This document shows, in pieces, positions 1-16,832 of a stretch of 25,154 bases of DNA. The notes beneath the pieces were generated by a model. It made no database searches. It worked only from the letters and a program-made list of their open reading frames with translations, and was not told the DNA's origin. The position numbers and the translations under genes were made by a program. The stretch's first letter is position 1, and every line of letters begins with the position of its first letter. The DNA comes from a virus (taxonomy: Duplodnaviria; Heunggongvirae; Uroviricota; Caudoviricetes), in IMG/VR virus record IMGVR_UViG_2534681662_000015; one strand, given 5' to 3'.

Positions 1-1284
1 TTACTTCTTCGCCTCTGCAACCACTTTACTACCCACGCCGCGGTTATTGTATTCCCACATGCGGTTGTAGTTAGTGTCATTCAGATTGCGCTGTATTTCG
101 TCGTTATCATCTACGCTGCCGGTATTACCCGCAAACGGACGATTAGAGATCACCGCATCGGCCCACGGTTTAGCCGTGTTAAAACCTTCGTTGATGGCGC
201 TATCACGGATCACCACCTGACCGTTGGTATTGGCATCAACATCCAGCGAGCGGCCCAGTTGCGCCACACCATCACCGAAAGCATTGAAACGGCTGTTTAC
301 GGCGAGGAAACCGTAGTAAATGTTGGACAGCGTAGCCGGTGCAAACACATACGCTTCTTGCTGAGTACGTGAGTTCACCACGCGGAATTCGGTGTTATCG
401 AACACCACTGCGCCGCGACCAGAAACGATATCCACATCCCCTTCAATGTAGCTGTTGGTCACCAGCGTACGCGGCTGACGGTTGGTTTCCAGACGGTTCT
501 GCACACCGCTGTTGGTGACAAAGAAGGTGTTCTGACGACCGAGAATGTTAACGTTGTTAATCTGTACCTGGTCACCATCAGTACGCAGTGCCACCGCCGG
601 ATGGTTACCTGCATCTACGCTATCGCCCAGCGTGTTTTCGATGGTCAGATTTTGCAGTTGCAGGCCATTGTTTTGTGACCAGAAGACCGCAGAGCAGAGA
701 ACACCGATACTGTCGCTGCGTTTGCTCTGGCAGCTATCGTACATATACCACGCTGGTTTACCTGGCATATATTTGCCGCGCGGGTTGACGTCGTGACGCC
801 AGTCGGCAGGGCTCATGCCCCCATCAAGGGAAAGCCCAATCTTCACATCAATCGGTTTTTCACCTGTACCGTACAGAGTAATTCCACCCGGAGCAGCAGG
901 GACATACACCGTTCCCTGATACTCACCAGGCATCACGGCAATATACTGGCGCTTGTTAGTGCGCTTGATAATTGCCGCATCTACCGCCGCCTGAATCGTG
1001 GTATGCGTTACACCTTGAGTACCCGCCGGGCCGACAACAAAGTCAGGTTGCGCAGGCAGGGTAATCGGGGAAGGATTCCACGCTGCAGCACCTGGTGTCA
1101 GGGATGCAAAATAGTGTTGAGCATCGAAATTCTGCGCTTCTTTTGCCGACAGAATCGGGCGAGAAGAGGTACCAGGCGCGGTTTGATCAGAAGGACGTTG
1201 ATCGGGTGGTGTTGAGCTACAGGCGGTCAGCGTCACGCCAAAAGCCAATGCCAGCGCCAGACGGGAAACTGAAAATGTGTTCAC
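1..1284 (-). CDS. ybhC: YbhC-like outer-membrane lipoprotein (pectinesterase-fold thioesterase), host gene flanking attB-lambda
   Basis: 427-aa ORF with lipoprotein signal (…GVTLTAC) and pectinesterase-like body; recognised from memory as E. coli YbhC, which borders the lambda att site. Complete; its stop codon is at the window start. Confidence 0.85.
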   Translation of the reverse strand: MNTFSVSRLALALAFGVTLTACSSTPPDQRPSDQTAPGTSSRPILSAKEAQNFDAQHYFASLTPGAAAWNPSPITLPAQPDFVVGPAGTQGVTHTTIQAAVDAAIIKRTNKRQYIAVMPGEYQGTVYVPAAPGGITLYGTGEKPIDVKIGLSLDGGMSPADWRHDVNPRGKYMPGKPAWYMYDSCQSKRSDSIGVLCSAVFWSQNNGLQLQNLTIENTLGDSVDAGNHPAVALRTDGDQVQINNVNILGRQNTFFVTNSGVQNRLETNRQPRTLVTNSYIEGDVDIVSGRGAVVFDNTEFRVVNSRTQQEAYVFAPATLSNIYYGFLAVNSRFNAFGDGVAQLGRSLDVDANTNGQVVIRDSAINEGFNTAKPWADAVISNRPFAGNTGSVDDNDEIQRNLNDTNYNRMWEYNNRGVGSKVVAEAKK

Positions 1285-2685: not shown

Positions 2686-2724
2686 CGCAAAGTCTCCGCA
2701 ATTACACGCAAGAAAAAACCGCCA

Positions 2725-2892
2725 TCAGGCGGCTTGGTGTTCTTTCAGTTCTTCAATTCGAATATTGGTTACGTCTGCATGTGCTATCTGCGCCCACAGC
2801 ATCCAGTGGTCATAGCAGTCGCTGATGTTCTCGGCTTCGATAACTCTGTTGAATGGTTCTCCATTCCATTCACCTGTGACTCGGAAGTGCAT
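2725..2892 (-). CDS. Small hypothetical protein (55 aa), at the position of the lambda 55-aa ORF just upstream of xis
   Basis: Hand-translated minus-strand ORF MHFRVTGEWNGEPFNRVIEAENISDCYDHWMLWAQIAHADVTNIRIEELKEHQAA (below the 60-aa cutoff of the ORF track); position and size match the lambda small ORF next to xis. Confidence 0.45.
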   Translation of the reverse strand: MHFRVTGEWNGEPFNRVIEAENISDCYDHWMLWAQIAHADVTNIRIEELKEHQAA

Positions 2893-3134: not shown

Positions 3135-3737
3135 ATGAGCTATTTTCTGCGCAAAAAATGGATGGTAAATTTGTCCGGGTCAGGAAAAATTTTATGGGCG
3201 CTAAACATGAAAAAAGATTCGTATCCTTATTTGATTTGCATGACAGTTTCAGGGCTGATCTTTATTTTCCTTTTCTTCTGGTGGCGGGCAGATATCTACA
3301 GGGTCACGTTTCTTAATCAGAGTATATCCCACTATTACATTCTGTTTAGCATGGGAATAGCTTTTCTGTTATCTCTGTTTTGGGTTAAGAAGGGGATAGT
3401 AAAACAAAGAGGCTGGAAGAGTCTGTCAGCATACCTTAAGGTTTATGCAGGGATGTGCATATTTGCAGGATTTTTTCTGATTATACCCCTTACGACACTA
3501 ACTTATTTTTTGCCTGGAGAGACATCGTCTTATGTTGCACCGTATCGGTATACTTCCGGTAGTTCAAAAAGTTGTTCTGGAGCTGAGGTGGATGACCCCG
3601 ATCTACATGAGAATATTCGCATTTGCTATCCGTATGGCAATTATGAGTACGATAATATTATCTATGTTGAAAAGAAAATTAATATATTAGGTGCGGTAGT
3701 GACATATGCACAGACCGCGCGTGATGATACTGAATGA
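3135..3737 (+). CDS. Hypothetical integral membrane protein (~176-200 aa; 3 predicted TM helices plus a Tyr/Cys-rich C-terminal domain); AT-rich cargo gene
   Basis: Longest ORF in an AT-rich block on the strand opposite the surrounding early-left operon. Hydrophobic segments LICMTVSGLIFIFLFFWW, YYILFSMGIAFLLSLFWV and CIFAGFFLIIPLTTLTYFL. Start is ambiguous (ATG at 3135, 3162 or 3207; none has a strong SD). Not a lambda gene that I recognise. Confidence 0.55.
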   Translation: MSYFLRKKWMVNLSGSGKILWALNMKKDSYPYLICMTVSGLIFIFLFFWWRADIYRVTFLNQSISHYYILFSMGIAFLLSLFWVKKGIVKQRGWKSLSAYLKVYAGMCIFAGFFLIIPLTTLTYFLPGETSSYVAPYRYTSGSSKSCSGAEVDDPDLHENIRICYPYGNYEYDNIIYVEKKINILGAVVTYAQTARDDTE

Positions 3738-4220: not shown

Positions 4221-4246
4221 TAATAAAAAAGGAGCCTGTAGCTCCC
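4221..4246 (-). terminator. Putative intrinsic terminator (minus strand) between the orf61-like gene and the TraR-like gene
   Basis: Minus-strand reading GGGAGC-uacag-GCUCCU followed by UUUUUUAUUAUU. Confidence 0.45.
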
Positions 4247-4267
4247 TGATGATTTTGCTTTTCATGT

Positions 4268-4579
4268 TCATCGTTCCTTAAAGACGCCGTTTAACATGCC
4301 GATTGCCAGGCTTAAATGAGTCGGTGTGAATCCCATCAGCGTTACCGTTTCGCGGTGCTTCTTCAGTACGCTACGGCAAATGTCATCGACGTTTTTATCC
4401 GGAAACTGCTGTCTGGCTTTTTTGATTTCAGAATTAGCCTGACGGGCAATGCTGCGAAGGGCGTTTTCCTGCTGAGGTGTCATTGAACAAGTCCCATGTC
4501 GGCAAGCATAAGCACACAGAATATGAAGCCCGCTGCCAGAAAAATGCATTCCGTGGTTGTCATACCTGGTCTCTCTCAT
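4268..4579 (-). CDS. Small early-left protein (lambda orf61-position homolog; 103-aa reading frame, true start uncertain)
   Basis: ORF whose first ATG overlaps the upstream orf63-like gene by 20 nt, the same arrangement I recall for lambda orf61/orf63; internal starts at M11 or M33 are possible. Confidence 0.45.
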   Translation of the reverse strand: MRETRYDNHGMHFSGSGLHILCAYACRHGTCSMTPQQENALRSIARQANSEIKKARQQFPDKNVDDICRSVLKKHRETVTLMGFTPTHLSLAIGMLNGVFKER

Positions 4580-4751: not shown

Positions 4752-4912
4752 ACAGCTCCCCGTTTATTATTTATCTCCTCAGCCAGCCGCTGTGCTTTCA
4801 GGGGATTTCGGATAACAGAAAGGCCGGGAAATACCCAGCCTCGCTTCGTAACGGAGTAGACGAAAGTGATCGTGCCTACGCGGATATTATCGTGAGGATG
4901 TTTCATCGCCAT
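4724..4912 (-). CDS. Small early-left protein, lambda Orf60a-like (62 aa)
   Basis: 62-aa ORF immediately downstream of exo on the minus strand, overlapping the exo stop, as in lambda. Confidence 0.6.
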
Positions 4913-5583
4913 TGCTCCCCAAATACAAAACCAATTTCAGCCAGTGCCTCGTCCATTTTTTCGATGAACTCCGGCACCATCTCGTCAAAACTCGCCATGT
5001 AATTTTCATCCCGCTCAACCACGACATAATGCAGGCCTTCACGCTTCATTCGTGGGTCATAGTTGGCAAAGTACCAGGCATCTTTTCGCGTCACCCACAT
5101 GCTGTACTGCACCTGGGCCATGTAAGCTGACTTTATGGCCTCGAAACCACCGAGCCGGAATTTCATGAAATCCCGGGAGGTAAACGGGCATTTCAGTTCA
5201 AGGCCGTTGCCGTCACTGCATAAACCATCGGGAGAGCAGGCGGTGCGCATACTTTCGTCGCGATAGATGATCGGGGATTCAGTAACATTCACGCCGGAAG
5301 TAAACTCAAACAGGGCTCTGGCGTCGTTCTCGTACTGTTTTCCCCAGGCCAGCGCCTTAGCATTAACTTCCGGAGCCACACCGGTGCAAACCTCAGCCAG
5401 CAGGGTGTGGAAGTAGGACATTTTCATGTCAGGCCACTTCTTTCCTGAGCGGGGCTTTGCTATCACGTTGTGAACTTCTGAAGCGGTGATGACGCCGAGC
5501 CGTAATTTGTGCCATGCATCATCCCCCTGTTCGACAGCTCTCACGTCGATCCCGGTACGCTGCAGGATAATGTCCGGTGTCAT
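4903..5583 (-). CDS. exo: Lambda exonuclease (Red-alpha)
   Basis: 226-aa ORF recognised as lambda Exo ([62 protein letters not shown]…); start overlaps the bet stop. Confidence 0.95.
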
Positions 5584-6365
5584 GCTGCCACCTTCTGCTC
5601 AGTGGCTTTCTGTTTCAGGAATCCAAGAGCTTTCACTGCTTCGGCCTGTGTCAGTTCTGACGATGCGCGAATGTCGCGGCGAAATATCTGGGAACAGAGC
5701 GGCAATAAGTCGTCATCCCATGTTTTATCCAGGGCGATCAGCAGAGTGTTAATCTCCTGCATGGTTTCATCGTTAACCGGAGTGATGTCGCGTTCCGGCT
5801 GACGTTCTGCAGTGTATGCAGTATTTTCGACAATGCGCTCGGCTTCATCCTTGTCATAGATACCAGCAAATCCGAAGGCCAGACGGGCACACTGAATCAT
5901 GGCTTTATGCCGTAACATCCGTTTGGGATGCGACTGCCACGGCCCCGTAATTTCTCTGCCTTCGCGAGTTTTGAATGGTTCGCGGCGGCATTCATCCATC
6001 CATTCGGTAACGCAGATCGGATGATTACGGTCCTTGCGGTAAATCCGGCATGTACAGGATTCATTGTCCTGCTCAAAGTCCATGCCATCAAACTGCTGGT
6101 TTTCATTGATGATGCGGGACCAGCCATCAACGCCCACCACCGGAACGATGCCGTTCTGCTTATCAGGGAAGGCGTAAATTTCTTTCGTCCACGGATTAAG
6201 GCCGTACTGGTTGGCGACGATCAACAATGCGATGAACTGCGCATCGCTGGCATCACCTTTAAATGCCGTCTGGCGAAGAGTGGTGATCAGTTCCTGTGGG
6301 TCGACAGAATCCATGCCGACACGTTCAGCCAGCTTCCCTGCCAGCGTTGCGAGTGCTGTACTCAT
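5580..6365 (-). CDS. bet: Lambda Beta single-strand annealing protein (Red-beta)
   Basis: 261-aa ORF recognised as lambda Bet ([68 protein letters not shown]…). Confidence 0.95.
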
Positions 6366-6370
6366 CCGTT

Positions 6371-6667
6371 TTATACCTCTGAATCAATATCAACCTGGTG
6401 GCGGGCAATAGTTTCAACCATGTACCGTATGTGTTCTGCCATGCGTTCCTGAAACTCAACATCGTCATCAAACGCACGGGTAATGGCTTTTTTGCTGGCC
6501 CCGTGGCGTTGCAAATGATCGATGCATAGCGATTCAAACAGGTGCTGGGGCAGGCCTTTTTCCATGTCGTCTGCCAGTTCTGCCTCTTTCTCTTCACGGG
6601 CGATCTGCTGGTAGTGACGCGCCCAGCTCTGAGCCTCAAGACGATCCTGAATGTAATAAGCGTTCAT
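6371..6667 (-). CDS. gam: Gam RecBCD inhibitor (98-aa GamS form)
   Basis: 98-aa [63 protein letters not shown]… recognised as lambda Gam; 5-nt gap to bet as in lambda. The in-frame upstream region hits a stop 18 codons up, so the long GamL form cannot be made. Confidence 0.9.
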
Positions 6668-6743
6668 GGCTGAACTCCTGAAAATGGCTGTGAAAATATC
6701 GCCCGCGAAATGCCAGGCTGATTAGGAAAACAGGAAAGGGGGG

Positions 6744-7034
6744 TTAGTGATTCAGGCCGTTACCGCGTCCGTCGAGAAAAACTTCCACGAGCAAATCACG
6801 GGTATAAGTGCGCTCGATGCCGCGATGCAGATAAAGCCGTCCGCGTAAATTAGCTGATGCAGTCCAGGTACCATCTTTGTGTTTGACCAGCATTCCTGGC
6901 ATGACCGCACCTCGATTAACGGTCTGCGTTCCGTAATGTTGATGAACCATAAAAACTCCTGCCCGTAAGCTGGGCTGCTGAACATATAAAGACTTCTGCG
7001 CGTATTCAGGCGGTGGATGGCCGCCGGTTGTCAT
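6744..7034 (-). CDS. Hypothetical early-left protein (96 aa); first gene downstream of the PL region
   Basis: ORF with an in-frame stop 8 codons upstream of its ATG and a GAGG SD; occupies the place where lambda has kil/cIII/ssb/ral/sieB/N but resembles none that I recognise; not Arg-rich like N. Confidence 0.5.
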   Translation of the reverse strand: MTTGGHPPPEYAQKSLYVQQPSLRAGVFMVHQHYGTQTVNRGAVMPGMLVKHKDGTWTASANLRGRLYLHRGIERTYTRDLLVEVFLDGRGNGLNH

Positions 7035-7171
7035 AACTAAGCCGCCTCGTTGAAGCGACTAAGGTATGAAATGTTGAGTTAATTTCAGCTGGTCACACCG
7101 ACGTTCACGCGTCCGTTTCACCCCTCGCACTCCCCGAAGCCTGCTGAAATTCAAACTGCGGATCTAAGCGG

Positions 7172-7222
7172 TCATCGCAACGGTGAATCAGGTAGTTGCC
7201 GTATCGTTGTGTTGTTGCGATG
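7172..7222 (-). promoter_or_regulatory. Large palindrome in the predicted PL leader (candidate RNA structure, terminator or protein-binding site)
   Basis: Perfect 10-bp inverted repeat TCATCGCAAC … GTTGCGATGA flanking 31 bp with further internal complementarity (CAACGG/CGTTG); lies immediately downstream of the predicted PL -10. Confidence 0.4.
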
Positions 7223-7300
7223 AACTTATTTAAAACTATAGTTGTTTTATCGTCAACAACAAAAGTTGTTTTATTGGTTGTTTTAGATATAACTGGTTGT
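7222..7300 (-). promoter_or_regulatory. Putative PL promoter with OL operator array
   Basis: Minus-strand TTGACG-17bp-TTAAAT, embedded in repeated GTTGTT/AACAAC half-sites (~7241, 7255, 7265, 7277, 7295); the module TTGACGATAAAACAACTATAGTTTTAAAT is near-identical to the PR module at 8284-8312. Confidence 0.5.
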
Positions 7301-7397
7301 ATTTAGGATGGATTTATTTTGTGACTTGAATCGCATAGCGATAACTGAAGCGAGGTTATGGTGGTTTTTTTAACGGTGTGTGTGATGAGGGGAGGGC

Positions 7398-7424
7398 AAA
7401 AGAAAACCCGGCACGGTGACCGGG
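7398..7424 (-). terminator. Putative terminator downstream of the repressor gene
   Basis: CCCGG-N8-CCGGG hairpin followed on the minus strand by TTTTCTTTT; about 120 bp after the cI-like stop. Confidence 0.35.
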
Positions 7425-7545
7425 ATTCTTACGCCGTTAGGTAAAGATATTATTGCGGTGGCTTAATATTACTACCTAGAGCAAAGATAGGAATTAGTTC
7501 TTTACTGAATGAGCACAATGCCCAGTTGATAATTTTTAATTGGTA

Positions 7546-8235
7546 CTACCCATGCTTCCTATATGTCTGCGGCATGCTCCCAATAACCTTACCGAAGATG
7601 AACACCCGGTTCATCTCGTCTTTCTCGATCGGGTCCCACGGTGAGTAGCTTTTGTTATCAGAGATGACCAGCAGCTTATTCTTCATCATTTGCAGGCGCT
7701 TTACATGGGCTGTGTCGTCGTACAGAAACGCATAGATACCATCACCGTCGAAAGATTTAACTGTGATATCAACGAACAGCAGATCACCTGGTTCGATCGT
7801 TCCTGACATGCTGTCACCACGCACGTTAATGATGCGGATATTTTCCGCCTTCCTACCATCGAACATGTGACGAGCATCGTCAAACGAGTACTCAACCGAG
7901 CGTAGAACTTCTACAAACTCACGGTTGATGACTCCCGGCCCAGCACTGACTTCTATATCAAGAACGTCAATCTTGAAGTATTTGGAATGGCTGACAGTTG
8001 ATTGTATTGGTTGCACTGTACTGTCTGACATATTTCCAACGCCAGAAGATAACCATTCTGCGCGCACACCCAAAGCGTTCGCGATCTCCACGATTTTAGT
8101 TGTTTGATTAGCTTTCCCTGTTTCGATTTTCTGAATAGCAGCCTGGCTAACCCCGACCAAATCCCCAAGCGCCTTTTGTGTAAGGCCTCGCGCTAATCTG
8201 GCTTCTTTAAGTCTTTCTGAGAGTGTTGTTTTCAT
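7546..8235 (-). CDS. CI-like prophage repressor (N-terminal XRE-type HTH, C-terminal LexA/S24 autopeptidase domain); non-lambda immunity
   Basis: HTH segment LTQKALGDLVGVSQAAIQKIETGK; S24 signatures GDSM (Ser nucleophile) and HVKRLQ (Lys). Start taken at MKTTLSERL… (ATG 8233-8235); the ORF stays open to an ATG at 8301 that lies inside the operator palindrome. Confidence 0.85.
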   Translation of the reverse strand: MKTTLSERLKEARLARGLTQKALGDLVGVSQAAIQKIETGKANQTTKIVEIANALGVRAEWLSSGVGNMSDSTVQPIQSTVSHSKYFKIDVLDIEVSAGPGVINREFVEVLRSVEYSFDDARHMFDGRKAENIRIINVRGDSMSGTIEPGDLLFVDITVKSFDGDGIYAFLYDDTAHVKRLQMMKNKLLVISDNKSYSPWDPIEKDEMNRVFIFGKVIGSMPQTYRKHG

Positions 8236-8339
8236 AGTCCAAATGTACAACCAAGGTTTTATTCCATCAAACGAAAATGGTTGTTGACTAAAAACAACCA
8301 TAGTTTTAATCTTGATTCAAATTAACCACGGAGGTTGTT
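8236..8339 (+). promoter_or_regulatory. OR operator / PR (and divergent PRM) region
   Basis: Palindrome ATGGTTGTT-N7-AACAACCAT (8277-8301) overlapping TTGACT (8284-8289) with TAATCT 17 bp downstream; GGAGG SD precedes the cro-like ATG at 8340. Confidence 0.6.
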
Positions 8340-8570
8340 ATGAACCCAGCTATCAAAACAGCGATCAATATCGTTGGTTCACAAAAGAAACTGGGCGCTG
8401 CTTGCGAAGTTTCACAGCAGGCCGTCTATAAGTGGCTTCACAACAAAGCAAAGGTATCCCCTGAACATGTCGGCAGCATTGTTACGGCTACTGGTGGAGT
8501 AGTGAAGGCATACCAGATTCGCCCGGATCTTCCGAAGTTGTTTCCACACACCGAAAAGAACGCAGCTTAA
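8340..8570 (+). CDS. Cro-like HTH protein (YdaS/DUF1019-type Cro analog)
   Basis: 76-aa ORF divergent from the repressor, HTH-like segment QKKLGAACEVSQQAVYKWLHNK; strong GGAGG SD. Confidence 0.75.
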   Translation: MNPAIKTAINIVGSQKKLGAACEVSQQAVYKWLHNKAKVSPEHVGSIVTATGGVVKAYQIRPDLPKLFPHTEKNAA

Positions 8571-8582
8571 ATTTCCATTTCA

Positions 8583-8596
8583 CGCTCTTTAACAAT
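8583..8596 (+). promoter_or_regulatory. boxA-like antitermination element (rrn-type boxA) at the nutR position
   Basis: CGCTCTTTAACAAT matches the rRNA-operon boxA consensus (TGCTCTTTAACAA) at 12 of 13 positions and sits 13 nt after the cro-like stop; no boxB-like hairpin is evident next to it. Confidence 0.5.
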
Positions 8597-8639
8597 AAGC
8601 AATCAACTTAACAGTCAATTCAAACTAAAGGAGTCAATT

Positions 8640-9179
8640 ATGCAACCACTTACATACCAACAGACTAGCGGATTTAGCCCGACTGCGGTGATAAATCGTT
8701 CTCAAACAAAACAGGTGCCAGGCCACGAAAAAATCCGTGATGCCGTCCGCGCCTGGTCGGCTGTAGATAATCAGGATGTCGTTGCCACACTCATTGTGAA
8801 TGAGTATCGGGAGCAGGGCGGCGGCACCATCGATTTCCCTGATGATGTCAGCCGTGCACGCCAGAAGCTGTTCCGCTTCCTCGATAACAAATTCGATTCT
8901 GAAAAATACCGAAATAATGTGCGTGAACTGACCCCGGCAATTCTGGCGGTACTACCGCTGGAATATCGCGGTTACCTGGTTGAGCAGGATAGCTTCATGG
9001 CTAGGGTGGCTGAAATGGAAAAGGAACTCAGTGAGGCAAAACAGGCTGTCATTCTCAACGCACCACGCCACCAGAAACTGAAGGAAATTAGTGAAGGTAT
9101 TGTGTCGATGTTTCGTGTGGACCCAGATCTGGCTAGTCCATTGATGGCGATGGTTACTACCATGCTGGGGGCGATATGA
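8640..9179 (+). CDS. YdaT-like protein (CII-analog regulator of Rac/CP-933P-type switch regions)
   Basis: 179-aa ORF with motifs recalled from E. coli YdaT (…REQGGG…, …LTPAILAVLPLEYR…); located exactly where lambda has cII; AGGAG SD. Confidence 0.65.
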   Translation: MQPLTYQQTSGFSPTAVINRSQTKQVPGHEKIRDAVRAWSAVDNQDVVATLIVNEYREQGGGTIDFPDDVSRARQKLFRFLDNKFDSEKYRNNVRELTPAILAVLPLEYRGYLVEQDSFMARVAEMEKELSEAKQAVILNAPRHQKLKEISEGIVSMFRVDPDLASPLMAMVTTMLGAI

Positions 9180-11192: not shown

Positions 11193-11259
11193 TGAAACAG
11201 GTGAGTTGAGTTCAAACTGTAGTACAATTCTCTCCAGTTTGAACAGGAAAGAATATGCT

Positions 11260-11592
11260 ATGAATCCTTATATTTATCTTGGTGGTGCAATACTTGCAGA
11301 GGTCATTGGTACAACCTTAATGAAGTTTTCAGAAGGTTTTACACGGTTATGGCCATCTGTTGGTACAATTATTTGTTATTGTGCATCATTCTGGTTATTA
11401 GCTCAGACGCTGGCTTATATTCCTACAGGGATTGCTTATGCTATCTGGTCAGGAGTCGGTATTGTCCTGATTAGCTTACTATCATGGGGATTTTTCGGCC
11501 AACGGTTGGACCTGCCAGCCATTATAGGCATGATGTTGATTTGTGCCGGTGTGTTGGTTATTAATTTATTGTCACGAAGCACACCACATTAA
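11260..11592 (+). CDS. emrE: Small multidrug resistance efflux transporter EmrE
   Basis: 110-aa four-TM protein MNPYIYLGGAILAEVIGTTLMKFSEGF… recognised as E. coli EmrE (DLP12 cargo); AGGAAA SD; the ORF-track entry 11206-11592 is an upstream extension. Confidence 0.9.
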   Translation: MNPYIYLGGAILAEVIGTTLMKFSEGFTRLWPSVGTIICYCASFWLLAQTLAYIPTGIAYAIWSGVGIVLISLLSWGFFGQRLDLPAIIGMMLICAGVLVINLLSRSTPH

Positions 11593-11847
11593 AAATAATT
11601 TGTTTTTAAACGACTAAAATATGGAGGCTCGTATATTTATATGGGCCTCGTTTTATGCTTTTTGTTAATGTCTTTAGTTTTTATTCATTCTTTTGTGCTT
11701 TCAAGATTATGGTGTAAGAAAATTGCAATACGATTATTGTTGTATATTCAAGATAATGTGACCTTAATTGTCTTTTTAAATAAAAATTAAACAAAAATCA
11801 TATCTCACCACTAAGGTTTATAAAAGCATACTTTAGCAGGTGTCACC

Positions 11848-16363: not shown

Positions 16364-16448
16364 AGTCAGAGATAACAATCAACTAATACTGTTTTGTTGA
16401 TTTTTGCTTGTAATTGGCGTTCTGGTCTGATTTTTGTGGAGTAAGTTG

Positions 16449-16832
16449 ATGCGTGATATTCAGATGGTTCTTGAGCGTTGGGGAGCGTGGGCGGCTAATA
16501 ATCATGAAGATGTGACCTGGTCGTCCATTGCCGCCGGTTTTAAGGGATTAATTACTTCAAAAGTAAAATCTCGCCCGCAATGTTGTGACGATGACGCGAT
16601 GATTATTTGCGGGTGCATGGCCCGTCTGAAAAAGAACAACAGCGATTTGCACGATTTATTAGTAGATTATTATGTAGTCGGTATGACATTCATGTCACTG
16701 GCAGGTAAGTATTGCTGCTCTGATGGTTATATCGGGAAAAGGTTACAGAAGGCTGAGGGCATAATTGAAGGGATGTTAATGGCATTAGATATCCGGTTAG
16801 AGATGGATATCGTTGTTAATAACTCTAATTAA
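16449..16832 (+). CDS. quuD: Late-gene antiterminator Q (DLP12 QuuD-type, 127 aa)
   Basis: Protein [33 protein letters not shown]… with Cys-rich zinc-binding segment; last gene of the nin operon; the ORF-track entry begins at a TTG at 16434. Confidence 0.85.

Follow-up and report, generated by a model that had tools for sequence, protein, structure and literature searches.

How does a lambdoid phage carry early transcription forward when neither an N gene nor a put RNA can be recognised in it? The question is raised by a 25,154-nucleotide (nt) stretch of viral DNA (IMG/VR record IMGVR_UViG_2534681662_000015; its full length is called the window below), whose content is that of a lambdoid prophage. 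In lambdoid phages, early antitermination by N at nut sites is the textbook case and put is the exception. Just behind its cro-like gene, the window carries a boxA element, and a preliminary description, made from the sequence alone, had proposed that early antitermination here could be driven by boxA and host Nus factors, or by RNA structure, rather than by N. Comparison with relatives suggests that the element was once a boxA with a hairpin and that boxA was retained while the hairpin was lost; a working, N-independent role for it is a reading that we hold tentatively.

A boxA element between the cro-like and YdaT-like genes

The start of the right early operon is laid out as follows.

8284-8312, plus strand: PR promoter (TTGACT at 8284-8289, 17 nt, TAATCT at 8307-8312; start near 8319)
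8340-8570, plus strand: cro-like repressor gene, YdaS family (Pfam PF15943, E = 4e-17; phrog_35)
8510-8670, plus strand: most C-rich/G-poor stretch of the PR transcript (C/G 2.0-2.7), in which boxA is embedded
8583-8596, plus strand: BoxA, CGCTCTTTAACAAT, fitting GYTCTTTAANA and sharing 12 of 13 bases with rrn boxA TGCTCTTTAACAA
8608-8616, plus strand: apparent deletion scar, with one TTAACAG copy (8608-8614) and CAGTC (8612-8616), the 3' arm that remains of a boxB-like hairpin
8640-9179, plus strand: YdaT-like ("CII-like") gene (Pfam PF06254, E = 9e-30; phrog_163, E = 2e-66)

The rrn-type boxA that the preliminary description had placed at the nutR position is indeed there. It is exact and unique in the window, and by coordinates the gap between the cro-like stop codon (TAA, 8568-8570) and its first base is 12 nt. 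Within it, GCTCTTTAACA at 8584-8594 is a perfect match to GYTCTTTAANA, the gammaproteobacterial BoxA consensus (PMC5725501), and the lambda-type nut boxA, CGCTCTT(T)A, is also present exactly. The 12-mer GCTCTTTAACAA has a single exact occurrence in the 25-kb window, with one other, unrelated match at up to 2 mismatches, and the chance expectation for an exact 12-mer in 50 kb is approximately 0.003. As PR transcription starts near 8319, boxA would emerge about 264 nt into the PR transcript, a position of the class to which lambda nutR and HK022 putR (about 270 nt; PMC9378689) belong.

The 69-nt cro-ydaT spacer is predicted to be unstructured (-3.7 kcal/mol, z = -0.35), with no local hairpin after boxA, and the low folding energy predicts boxA to be unpaired in the nascent RNA. 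The C/G ratio, taken over 78-nt segments, peaks in segments starting at 8510-8590, and this C-rich, G-poor composition makes the tract around boxA rut-like. The boxA bases GCUCUUU (8584-8590) are complementary to AAGGAGU (8628-8634) in the Shine-Dalgarno region of the YdaT-like gene, with 7 pairs of which 2 are G-U; the predicted minimum-energy and centroid folds both contain the pairing, which is weak (centroid -3.3 kcal/mol). On sequence grounds, 8583-8596 can tentatively be assigned as a BoxA, a putative NusB/NusE(S10) binding site on the nascent PR transcript. The phage gene with this boxA is not among the BoxA candidates in the E. coli portion of the supplementary table of PMC5725501.

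Retention of boxA and probable loss of a hairpin, judged from relatives

To place the element among its relatives without selecting for it, the YdaT-like protein was searched by tblastn against loci that had been fetched by put, junction or annotation queries and not by boxA, which gave 110 loci with YdaT-like genes. A perfect boxA stands upstream of the YdaT-like gene in 28 of the 110, of which 23 belong to the window type and 5 to a diverged class (L111, L131, L139, L123 and L206); no degenerate boxA copies were seen upstream of YdaT-like genes in the 110 loci. Two loci (L104 and L007) carry the putR type at this place, and in the 4A7 and HK639/phi80 types boxA is absent and nothing but a small GCCGC hairpin spans the cro stop.

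In the diverged class, CGCTCTTTAACAAT is followed after 17-19 nt by a 6-bp hairpin, GGCUGA-(AUUA or GUAA)-UCAGCC. In locus L158, of the window type, two TTAACAG repeats enclose 12 bases that the window lacks (ACTGATTAACAG), and inserting ACTGATTAACAG after position 8614 of the window yields the 5-bp hairpin GACUG-AUUAA-CAGUC at the place of the diverged-class hairpin. A six-way alignment of the diverged spacers shows the 14-nt boxA as the sole long invariant block and the window without the 5' arm of the hairpin. The YdaT proteins of the diverged boxA lineages are 60-73% identical and the sequences flanking boxA have drifted, with the 14-mer itself identical. A 12-bp deletion between the TTAACAG repeats is thus the apparent cause of the missing 5' arm in the window lineage, and we conclude from these sequences that boxA with hairpin is the probable ancestral state, the hairpin having been lost by deletion in about 97% of the lineage and boxA having been kept. 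The earlier statement that no boxB-like hairpin follows boxA is correct for the window and incorrect for the minority spacer variant with the extra 12 nt.

The resemblance to nutR of lambda and P22, where boxA is accompanied by a boxB hairpin bound by N with NusA, NusB, NusE and NusG, extends to the boxA sequence, its place just after cro, the rut-like tract and, in the minority variants and diverged relatives, a short hairpin 15-18 nt downstream. Unlike those phages, the window has no N gene, no hairpin and no nutL, and the hairpin of the relatives differs from boxB in being further from boxA and in having AUUAA, AUUA or GUAA loops rather than loops of the GAAAA type.

Of 5426 complete E. coli genomes, 1515 (~28%) carry the boxA-type joint and spacer. 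Identity is at least 99% in most of these copies (1415), and an 80-90% band comprises 47; both of the two examples read from that band contain the 12 nt. One of them has the boxA CGTTCTTTAACAAT, with C changed to T at the sole degenerate position (Y) of the consensus, which gives the suhB-type GTTCTTTAACA and still fits GYTCTTTAANA. This is the sole natural substitution in boxA that was seen.

Two members of the diverged class, L111 and L123, combine a strong putL on the left (93 bits) with boxA and hairpin on the right (L111, putL at 4250-4329, minus strand, and boxA at 5670, plus strand; L123, putL at 3562-3641, minus strand, and boxA at 6905, plus strand). In L111, putL is all that stands between PL and the joint on the kil side. 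With putL on their left, L111 and L123 do not depend on N there and still keep the boxA element, and an invariant boxA upstream of YdaT-like genes, putL phages included, therefore makes an N-independent role with Nus factors plausible.

Related arrangements were seen elsewhere. In four unrelated viral contigs (L240, L245, L256 and L327), a hairpin (AAGCGCCCTATAGGACGCTT) lies directly upstream of CGCTCTTTAACAAT, an rrn-like arrangement which suggests that boxA elements occur widely among phage leaders. In L062 (~1200-1260, plus strand) and L079 (~2860-2800, minus strand), put stem I (GTCGAACGGCGCGAC...GCGTCGG) is directly followed by CGCTCTTTAACAATCTGGAA, so that these promoter-proximal leaders are put/boxA hybrids, with no N-like open reading frame (ORF) downstream. 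In E. coli AF4 (L397), a 19-nt unit, TCAATTCAAACTAAAGGAG, corresponding to window positions 8615-8633, is tandemly triplicated at 157-215, so that downstream of boxA the Shine-Dalgarno sequence occurs three times ahead of ydaT.

Absence of N and of put

None of the left- or right-operon ORFs tested matched an N family in Pfam or PHROGs, and the first gene of the PL operon is kil, not a protein with the Arg-rich motif and the NusA- and RNA polymerase-binding regions of N. The sole recognisable antiterminator protein within the window is a Q-like late antiterminator. The claim that the early region has no N ORF is accordingly right for canonical N; it had passed over an Arg-rich ORF at 7154/7121-7059 on the minus strand, described below. 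No boxB-like target was found in the PL leader or after boxA in the window. A degenerate boxA candidate in the PL leader (CGCUUAGAU, ~7168-7160) was rejected, as it does not fit GYTCTTTAANA.

Searches with Rfam gave no match at gathering thresholds across the whole window, and noise alone at E up to 10 in 6900-8750. As HK022 itself also scored nothing, Rfam was taken to lack a put family and a covariance model was built from 20 putL-like sequences from viral contigs aligned with HK022 putR (21 sequences, 18 bp). With filters off, this model, which gave the 93-bit scores for the putL of L111 and L123, found nothing in 7035-7221 (minus strand) or 8570-8640 (plus strand), its best match in the window (E = 0.21) lying elsewhere. 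Likewise, the two-stem put fold with its GAACGG...GUCGG...GGCGG...CAAU motifs was not found in the PL leader or the cro-ydaT spacer. By this model, put of the HK022/HK639 type is absent from the window, which speaks against the put-like RNA alternative of the preliminary description; the folding and covariance searches that it had proposed for both leaders returned no put, an unstructured boxA and a boxB-like hairpin in variants alone. The window resembles HK022 and HK639 in lacking N, in having its PL leader and cro-distal spacer in the places of putL and putR, and in having relatives that combine putL with the boxA element, and differs from them in the lack of a sequence or structure match to put at either position. 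Distant blastn searches of the PL leader and the cro-ydaT spacer against phages returned close relatives alone.

The PL leaders of phi80 (L127/L232, X13065; ~1140-1060, minus strand) and HK639 (L004; 3390-3330, minus strand) share their first ~45 nt, CCATCGAAACGAAACATCGA.AGCTGAG.GAAGTTAGCCAGCGGCG, which is followed by putL in HK639 and by a boxA-like TGCTTTTTAACAA in phi80. The 98-aa protein annotated as "N" in phi80 lacks an Arg-rich motif, and its sole match is a PHROG of unknown function.

A boxA that may act without N

The explanation we favour, possible but held short of probable, is that boxA is a functional NusB/S10 site that acts independently of N and modulates Rho action at the cro-ydaT joint. 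By analogy with known BoxA systems, 8583-8596 would be the surviving half of a bipartite element, boxA plus a short hairpin, belonging to the cro/YdaT-like joint of lambdoid immunity regions without a lambda-type N gene, and the 12-bp deletion would have left boxA alone in an unstructured, rut-like stretch. As it emerges, boxA would be bound by NusB/S10 and, with NusA, NusG and SuhB, stay looped to RNA polymerase, as happens at rrn and CRISPR-array leaders, and such a complex, requiring no protein of the phage, could shield the PR transcript against Rho from the cro-ydaT joint onward. It would be a modulating device, neither the sole nor an essential antitermination device, and the left operon has no counterpart to it, having instead a conserved 187-nt leader with an Arg-rich mini-ORF, followed by kil.

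Precedents exist in rrn operons, suhB and CRISPR arrays, where boxA and Nus factors act without N (PMC5725501, PMC7665894, PMC4807359). Like BoxA of rrn operons and CRISPR-array leaders (PMC4807359, PMC7665894), the window element has a perfect consensus, would need no phage protein, is predicted to be single-stranded, and is promoter-distal and upstream of a long transcription unit, with Rho as the expected target. It differs in that the RNA downstream is translated mRNA rather than untranslated rRNA or crRNA, and in having no boxC and no upstream boxB.

Transcription from PR and PL would also have to pass several intrinsic-terminator-like sites, which are consensus matches from pattern scans.

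11624-11649, plus strand: intrinsic-terminator-like hairpin (11 bp followed by GTTTTATGCT) after the SMR gene, on the PR-to-Q path
4820-4842, minus strand: intrinsic-terminator-like site in the PL operon
4229-4247, minus strand: intrinsic-terminator-like site in the PL operon
2716-2735, minus strand: intrinsic-terminator-like site upstream of xis

These sites suggest either a read-through device or internal promoters. Complexes at rrn-type boxA suppress Rho-dependent terminators and are not known to read through intrinsic ones; as one intrinsic-terminator-like site lies between ren and Q, boxA alone would not obviously deliver Q expression. Other observations also weigh against a functional, N-independent boxA. 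Heteroimmune siblings with the same ydaT-O-P genes (4A7-type, HK639-type and phi80) have no boxA, which makes it dispensable for the phage design. Conservation inside the lineage says little, given that 1415 of the 1515 E. coli copies are at least 99% identical, and the element as a whole may be decaying, as its partner hairpin is deleted in about 97% of copies. No nutL is present, since 7035-7221 holds no boxA at up to 2 mismatches. Finally, with the start codon 45 nt away and a rut-like tract across it, boxA is placed just as well for repression of the suhB kind. The proposal of boxA/Nus-driven antitermination without N remains plausible from the absence of N and the retention of boxA in diverged putL relatives, and is weakened by the siblings and by the PL leader, both without boxA.

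Alternative readings of boxA

A decaying remnant of a former nut-like site, with factor and hairpin gone and no effect on transcription, is a doubtful but serious alternative. It would account for the removal of the hairpin arm, the lack of an N gene and a nutL partner, and sibling immunity types that manage without boxA, and in so young a lineage even a 14-mer free of selection would not yet have changed. Arguing the other way, the identical 14-mer has been kept between drifted flanks in lineages as far apart as their YdaT proteins indicate, putL phages among them, and the sole substitution seen is at the permissive Y position.

Repression of the kind known from suhB, in which NusB/S10 and further Nus factors at boxA would tether the RNA to polymerase in a loop, keep ribosomes from initiating on the YdaT-like gene and provoke Rho termination, appears unlikely; it would be a tR1-like attenuator tuning the expression of ydaT, O and P. 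The boxA is 33 nt upstream of the Shine-Dalgarno sequence of the YdaT-like gene (AAGGAG, 8628-8633) and 45 nt upstream of its ATG, and it overlaps a pyrimidine-rich, rut-like tract. These values fall within the 50-bp criterion and the 100-nt functional range given for suhB, where boxA also overlaps a pyrimidine-rich tract (PMC5725501). In addition, the suhB boxA is itself the natural variant GTTCTTTAACA of the window lineage, boxA can pair with the Shine-Dalgarno sequence in predicted folds, and lambda N/nutL similarly represses N translation, as cited in PMC5725501. Unlike the suhB boxA, which lies in a 5' untranslated region and directs Nus-dependent translational repression and Rho termination, the window boxA lies between two operon genes; the Shine-Dalgarno pairing is weak, and in putL phages the element occupies the place of HK022 putR, which is an antiterminator.

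The left operon and its leader

Any account of early transcription without N must also cover the left operon, whose first features are these.

7228-7256, minus strand: PL promoter (-35 TTGACG at 7256-7251, 17-nt spacer, -10 TTAAAT at 7233-7228; start near 7221)
7035-7221, minus strand: conserved PL leader, 187 nt, with no boxA and no put
7059-7121, minus strand: Arg-rich mini-ORF starting at GTG with GGGGAG 8 nt upstream (MKRTRERRCDQLKLTQHFIP and stop), in frame with the kil ORF
7040-7060, minus strand: 9-bp hairpin (AGUCGCUUC-AAC-GAGGCGGCU) holding GAGG, just upstream of ATG 7034
6744-6950, minus strand: kil (FtsZ inhibitor family), first gene of the PL operon (phrog_294, E = 1.3e-37)

PL lies where the preliminary description had put it and has the same architecture as PR, which is set within an operator inverted repeat (8277-8301). 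The first leftward gene, described as a 96-aa unknown, is not a novel protein: its C-terminal 68 aa are Kil (residues 1-68 against profile positions 13-80 of 83; homologues carry PF27398), and the upstream extension is not conserved and was rejected as spurious. Distant Kil homologues all start with MVHQHYG, the sequence upstream of this being unrelated, and a strong AGGAG precedes the Kil ATG. With translation starting at that ATG, the untranslated leader may be about 270 nt long.

Heteroimmune phages share the PL leader at about 95% identity, the homology setting in at the first transcribed base, and the leader is present in 2198 of 5426 complete E. coli genomes (~40%). Its folding is ordinary (z = -0.51 for the whole leader, -1.55 for a 39-nt core at 7121-7083), and RNAalifold on 18 leader variants gave 0 compensatory pairs, the divergence being too low for covariation. 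The 5' third of the leader is C-rich and G-poor (C/G 1.64), and a Rho-dependent attenuator for the toxic kil is as plausible a role for the leader as an antiterminator. In L012, L095 and L111, putL is directly upstream of a joint made of the hairpin at 7040-7060 and ATGACAACCGG, so the window leader occupies the place of putL.

The 7040-7060 hairpin with ATGACAACCGGCGGCCATCCACC, where a short MTTGGHPP ORF starts, recurs as a mosaic joint of lambdoid left operons and was seen in at least 120 viral contigs. In phi80 (L127, 355-413), ENT1 (L128, ~2545-2580) and most other contigs, it comes after a strong intrinsic terminator that follows the upstream gene. Compared with Enterobacter phage ENT1, the hairpin has two compensatory base pairs; a processing site and translational control are possibilities.

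The mini-ORF would encode 20-31 aa depending on its start (GTG, or TTG at 7154) and ends at TAG 7061-7059 (...RLRGVRGVKRTRERRCDQLKLTQHFIP and stop), with an Arg-rich portion ...VKRTRERRCDQLK... within it. Among 50 unique copies from viral contigs, the amber codon is TAG in 17 and CAG in 33, a polymorphism that decides whether the mini-ORF stops at 20 aa or runs on into kil; 4A7, PhiR47_2 and Turner have CAG, leaving the frame open to the end of kil. The GTG is ATG in 6 of the 50, all of which have TAG, and a 5-nt insertion in 3 breaks the frame to kil. There is almost no variation in the core, and the single polymorphism that is common there is synonymous. PHROGs held no family for the peptide, tblastn found it in the same phage family alone, BLASTP against lambda N did not align the Arg-rich motif, and a back-translated MKRTRERR pattern searched in 185,579 species genomes gave 52 matches, all in unrelated high-GC organisms and none enterobacterial. 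The mini-ORF is treated here as a lead, not as an N gene.

That the commonest lambdoid lineage among E. coli prophages runs an early program with neither N nor put, combining a bare boxA on the right, to which the host Nus complex of the rrn type would be recruited, with a new antiterminator RNA or an approximately 20-aa Arg-rich leader peptide on the left, seems quite unlikely. We consider it improbable that the PL leader is a cis-acting antiterminator RNA of a new class, put-like in function, with boxA a separate right-arm device or irrelevant, although this is not exclusive of the other readings. Such an RNA would fit a leader that occupies the place of putL and travels with several immunity types, its nearly invariant core, and the terminator-like sites that stand before xis and int even as members of the family are propagated phages. 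It is at odds with the empty put-model and Rfam searches, the ordinary folding energy and the absence of compensatory pairs, and the C-rich, G-poor 5' third fits the attenuator for kil equally.

That the mini-ORF encodes a minimal N-type RNA-binding antiterminator acting with boxA (20 aa, or an Arg-rich N-terminal extension of Kil where CAG is present) is very improbable: although, like N, it is the ORF closest to PL, MKRTRERRCDQLK resembles the Arg-rich motif TRRRERRAEKQ of lambda N (lambda record), GTG has GGGGAG upstream and an ATG variant, the Arg-rich codons stay intact after both a 1-nt insertion upstream and the 5-nt insertion downstream of GTG and vary synonymously, and a gene caller picked the start once (P0010), the peptide has no family match or homologue in other species, is at 20 aa too short for the NusA- and RNA polymerase-binding regions of N, has an unstable end and no boxB hairpin to bind in the PL leader or after boxA in the window, is shared by 4A7-type phages that have no boxA, and shows an invariance that RNA-level constraint would explain equally well.

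Meaning of a bare boxA

Lambdoid phages without N are already known, with a put mechanism usually assumed, as for LLS (PMC12315714), and N-independent BoxA function is known as well. New, if true, would be a lambdoid early operon running on a bare BoxA in a lineage that has neither N nor put, occurs in a large fraction of E. coli genomes and has near-identical genomes deposited as phages. If boxA works alone, the machinery for host rRNA antitermination would be serving a phage with no adaptor protein, and a phage case would join rrn, suhB and CRISPR arrays among the few N-independent BoxA targets. Should boxA be a relic, the question shifts to how terminators are passed toward Q and toward xis and int, and to the role of the PL leader.

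Gene content and relatives of the window

Outside the regions treated above, the following genes were assigned.

Left arm, minus strand: integrase and xis, DksA-like gene
4903-5583, minus strand: exo
5580-6365, minus strand: bet
6371-6667, minus strand: gam
7546-8235, minus strand: cI
16434-16832, plus strand: Q-like late antiterminator (phrog_79, E = 1.3e-52)

Downstream of the YdaT-like gene are O, P and ren, then a block with the SMR-transporter gene and further ORFs, and then ninB, rusA, the Q-like gene and the lysis and terminase genes. The ORFs 3' of the SMR gene correspond to YbcK, YbcL and YbcM in the annotation of the near-identical PhiR34_1 record.

The preliminary description had allowed that antitermination was lost in a defective prophage. 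Positions 6700-8700 are 99.8% identical to Escherichia phage PhiR34_1, and 1300-25154 runs collinear with genomes deposited as phages (96.4% identity at 84% coverage for PhiR70_1, 97.6% at 76% for PhiR34_1), whose records name E. coli C or MG1655 as host. No sign of a defect was found, and by this comparison a defective state of the phage family is unsupported. The window shares with the K-12 prophage DLP12 its SMR-transporter, ybcK, ybcL, ybcM, rusA and Q-like gene content, and with K-12 Rac its kil and its YdaS/YdaT-type cro and cII-like genes; unlike these two cryptic prophages, it looks intact, and it looks like an intact relative of DLP12.

The SMR-family (EmrE-like) gene, at 11206-11649 with its own strong terminator, stands between ren and the nin/Q region, as in DLP12. 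The 290-bp spacer between cI and PL (7257-7545) holds a terminator alone (7424-7407, minus strand), and at this site relatives carry inserted cargo, namely GevT/GevA in PhiR47_2 (L006) and an ASCH-domain gene with a 353-aa ORF in 4A7 (L005).

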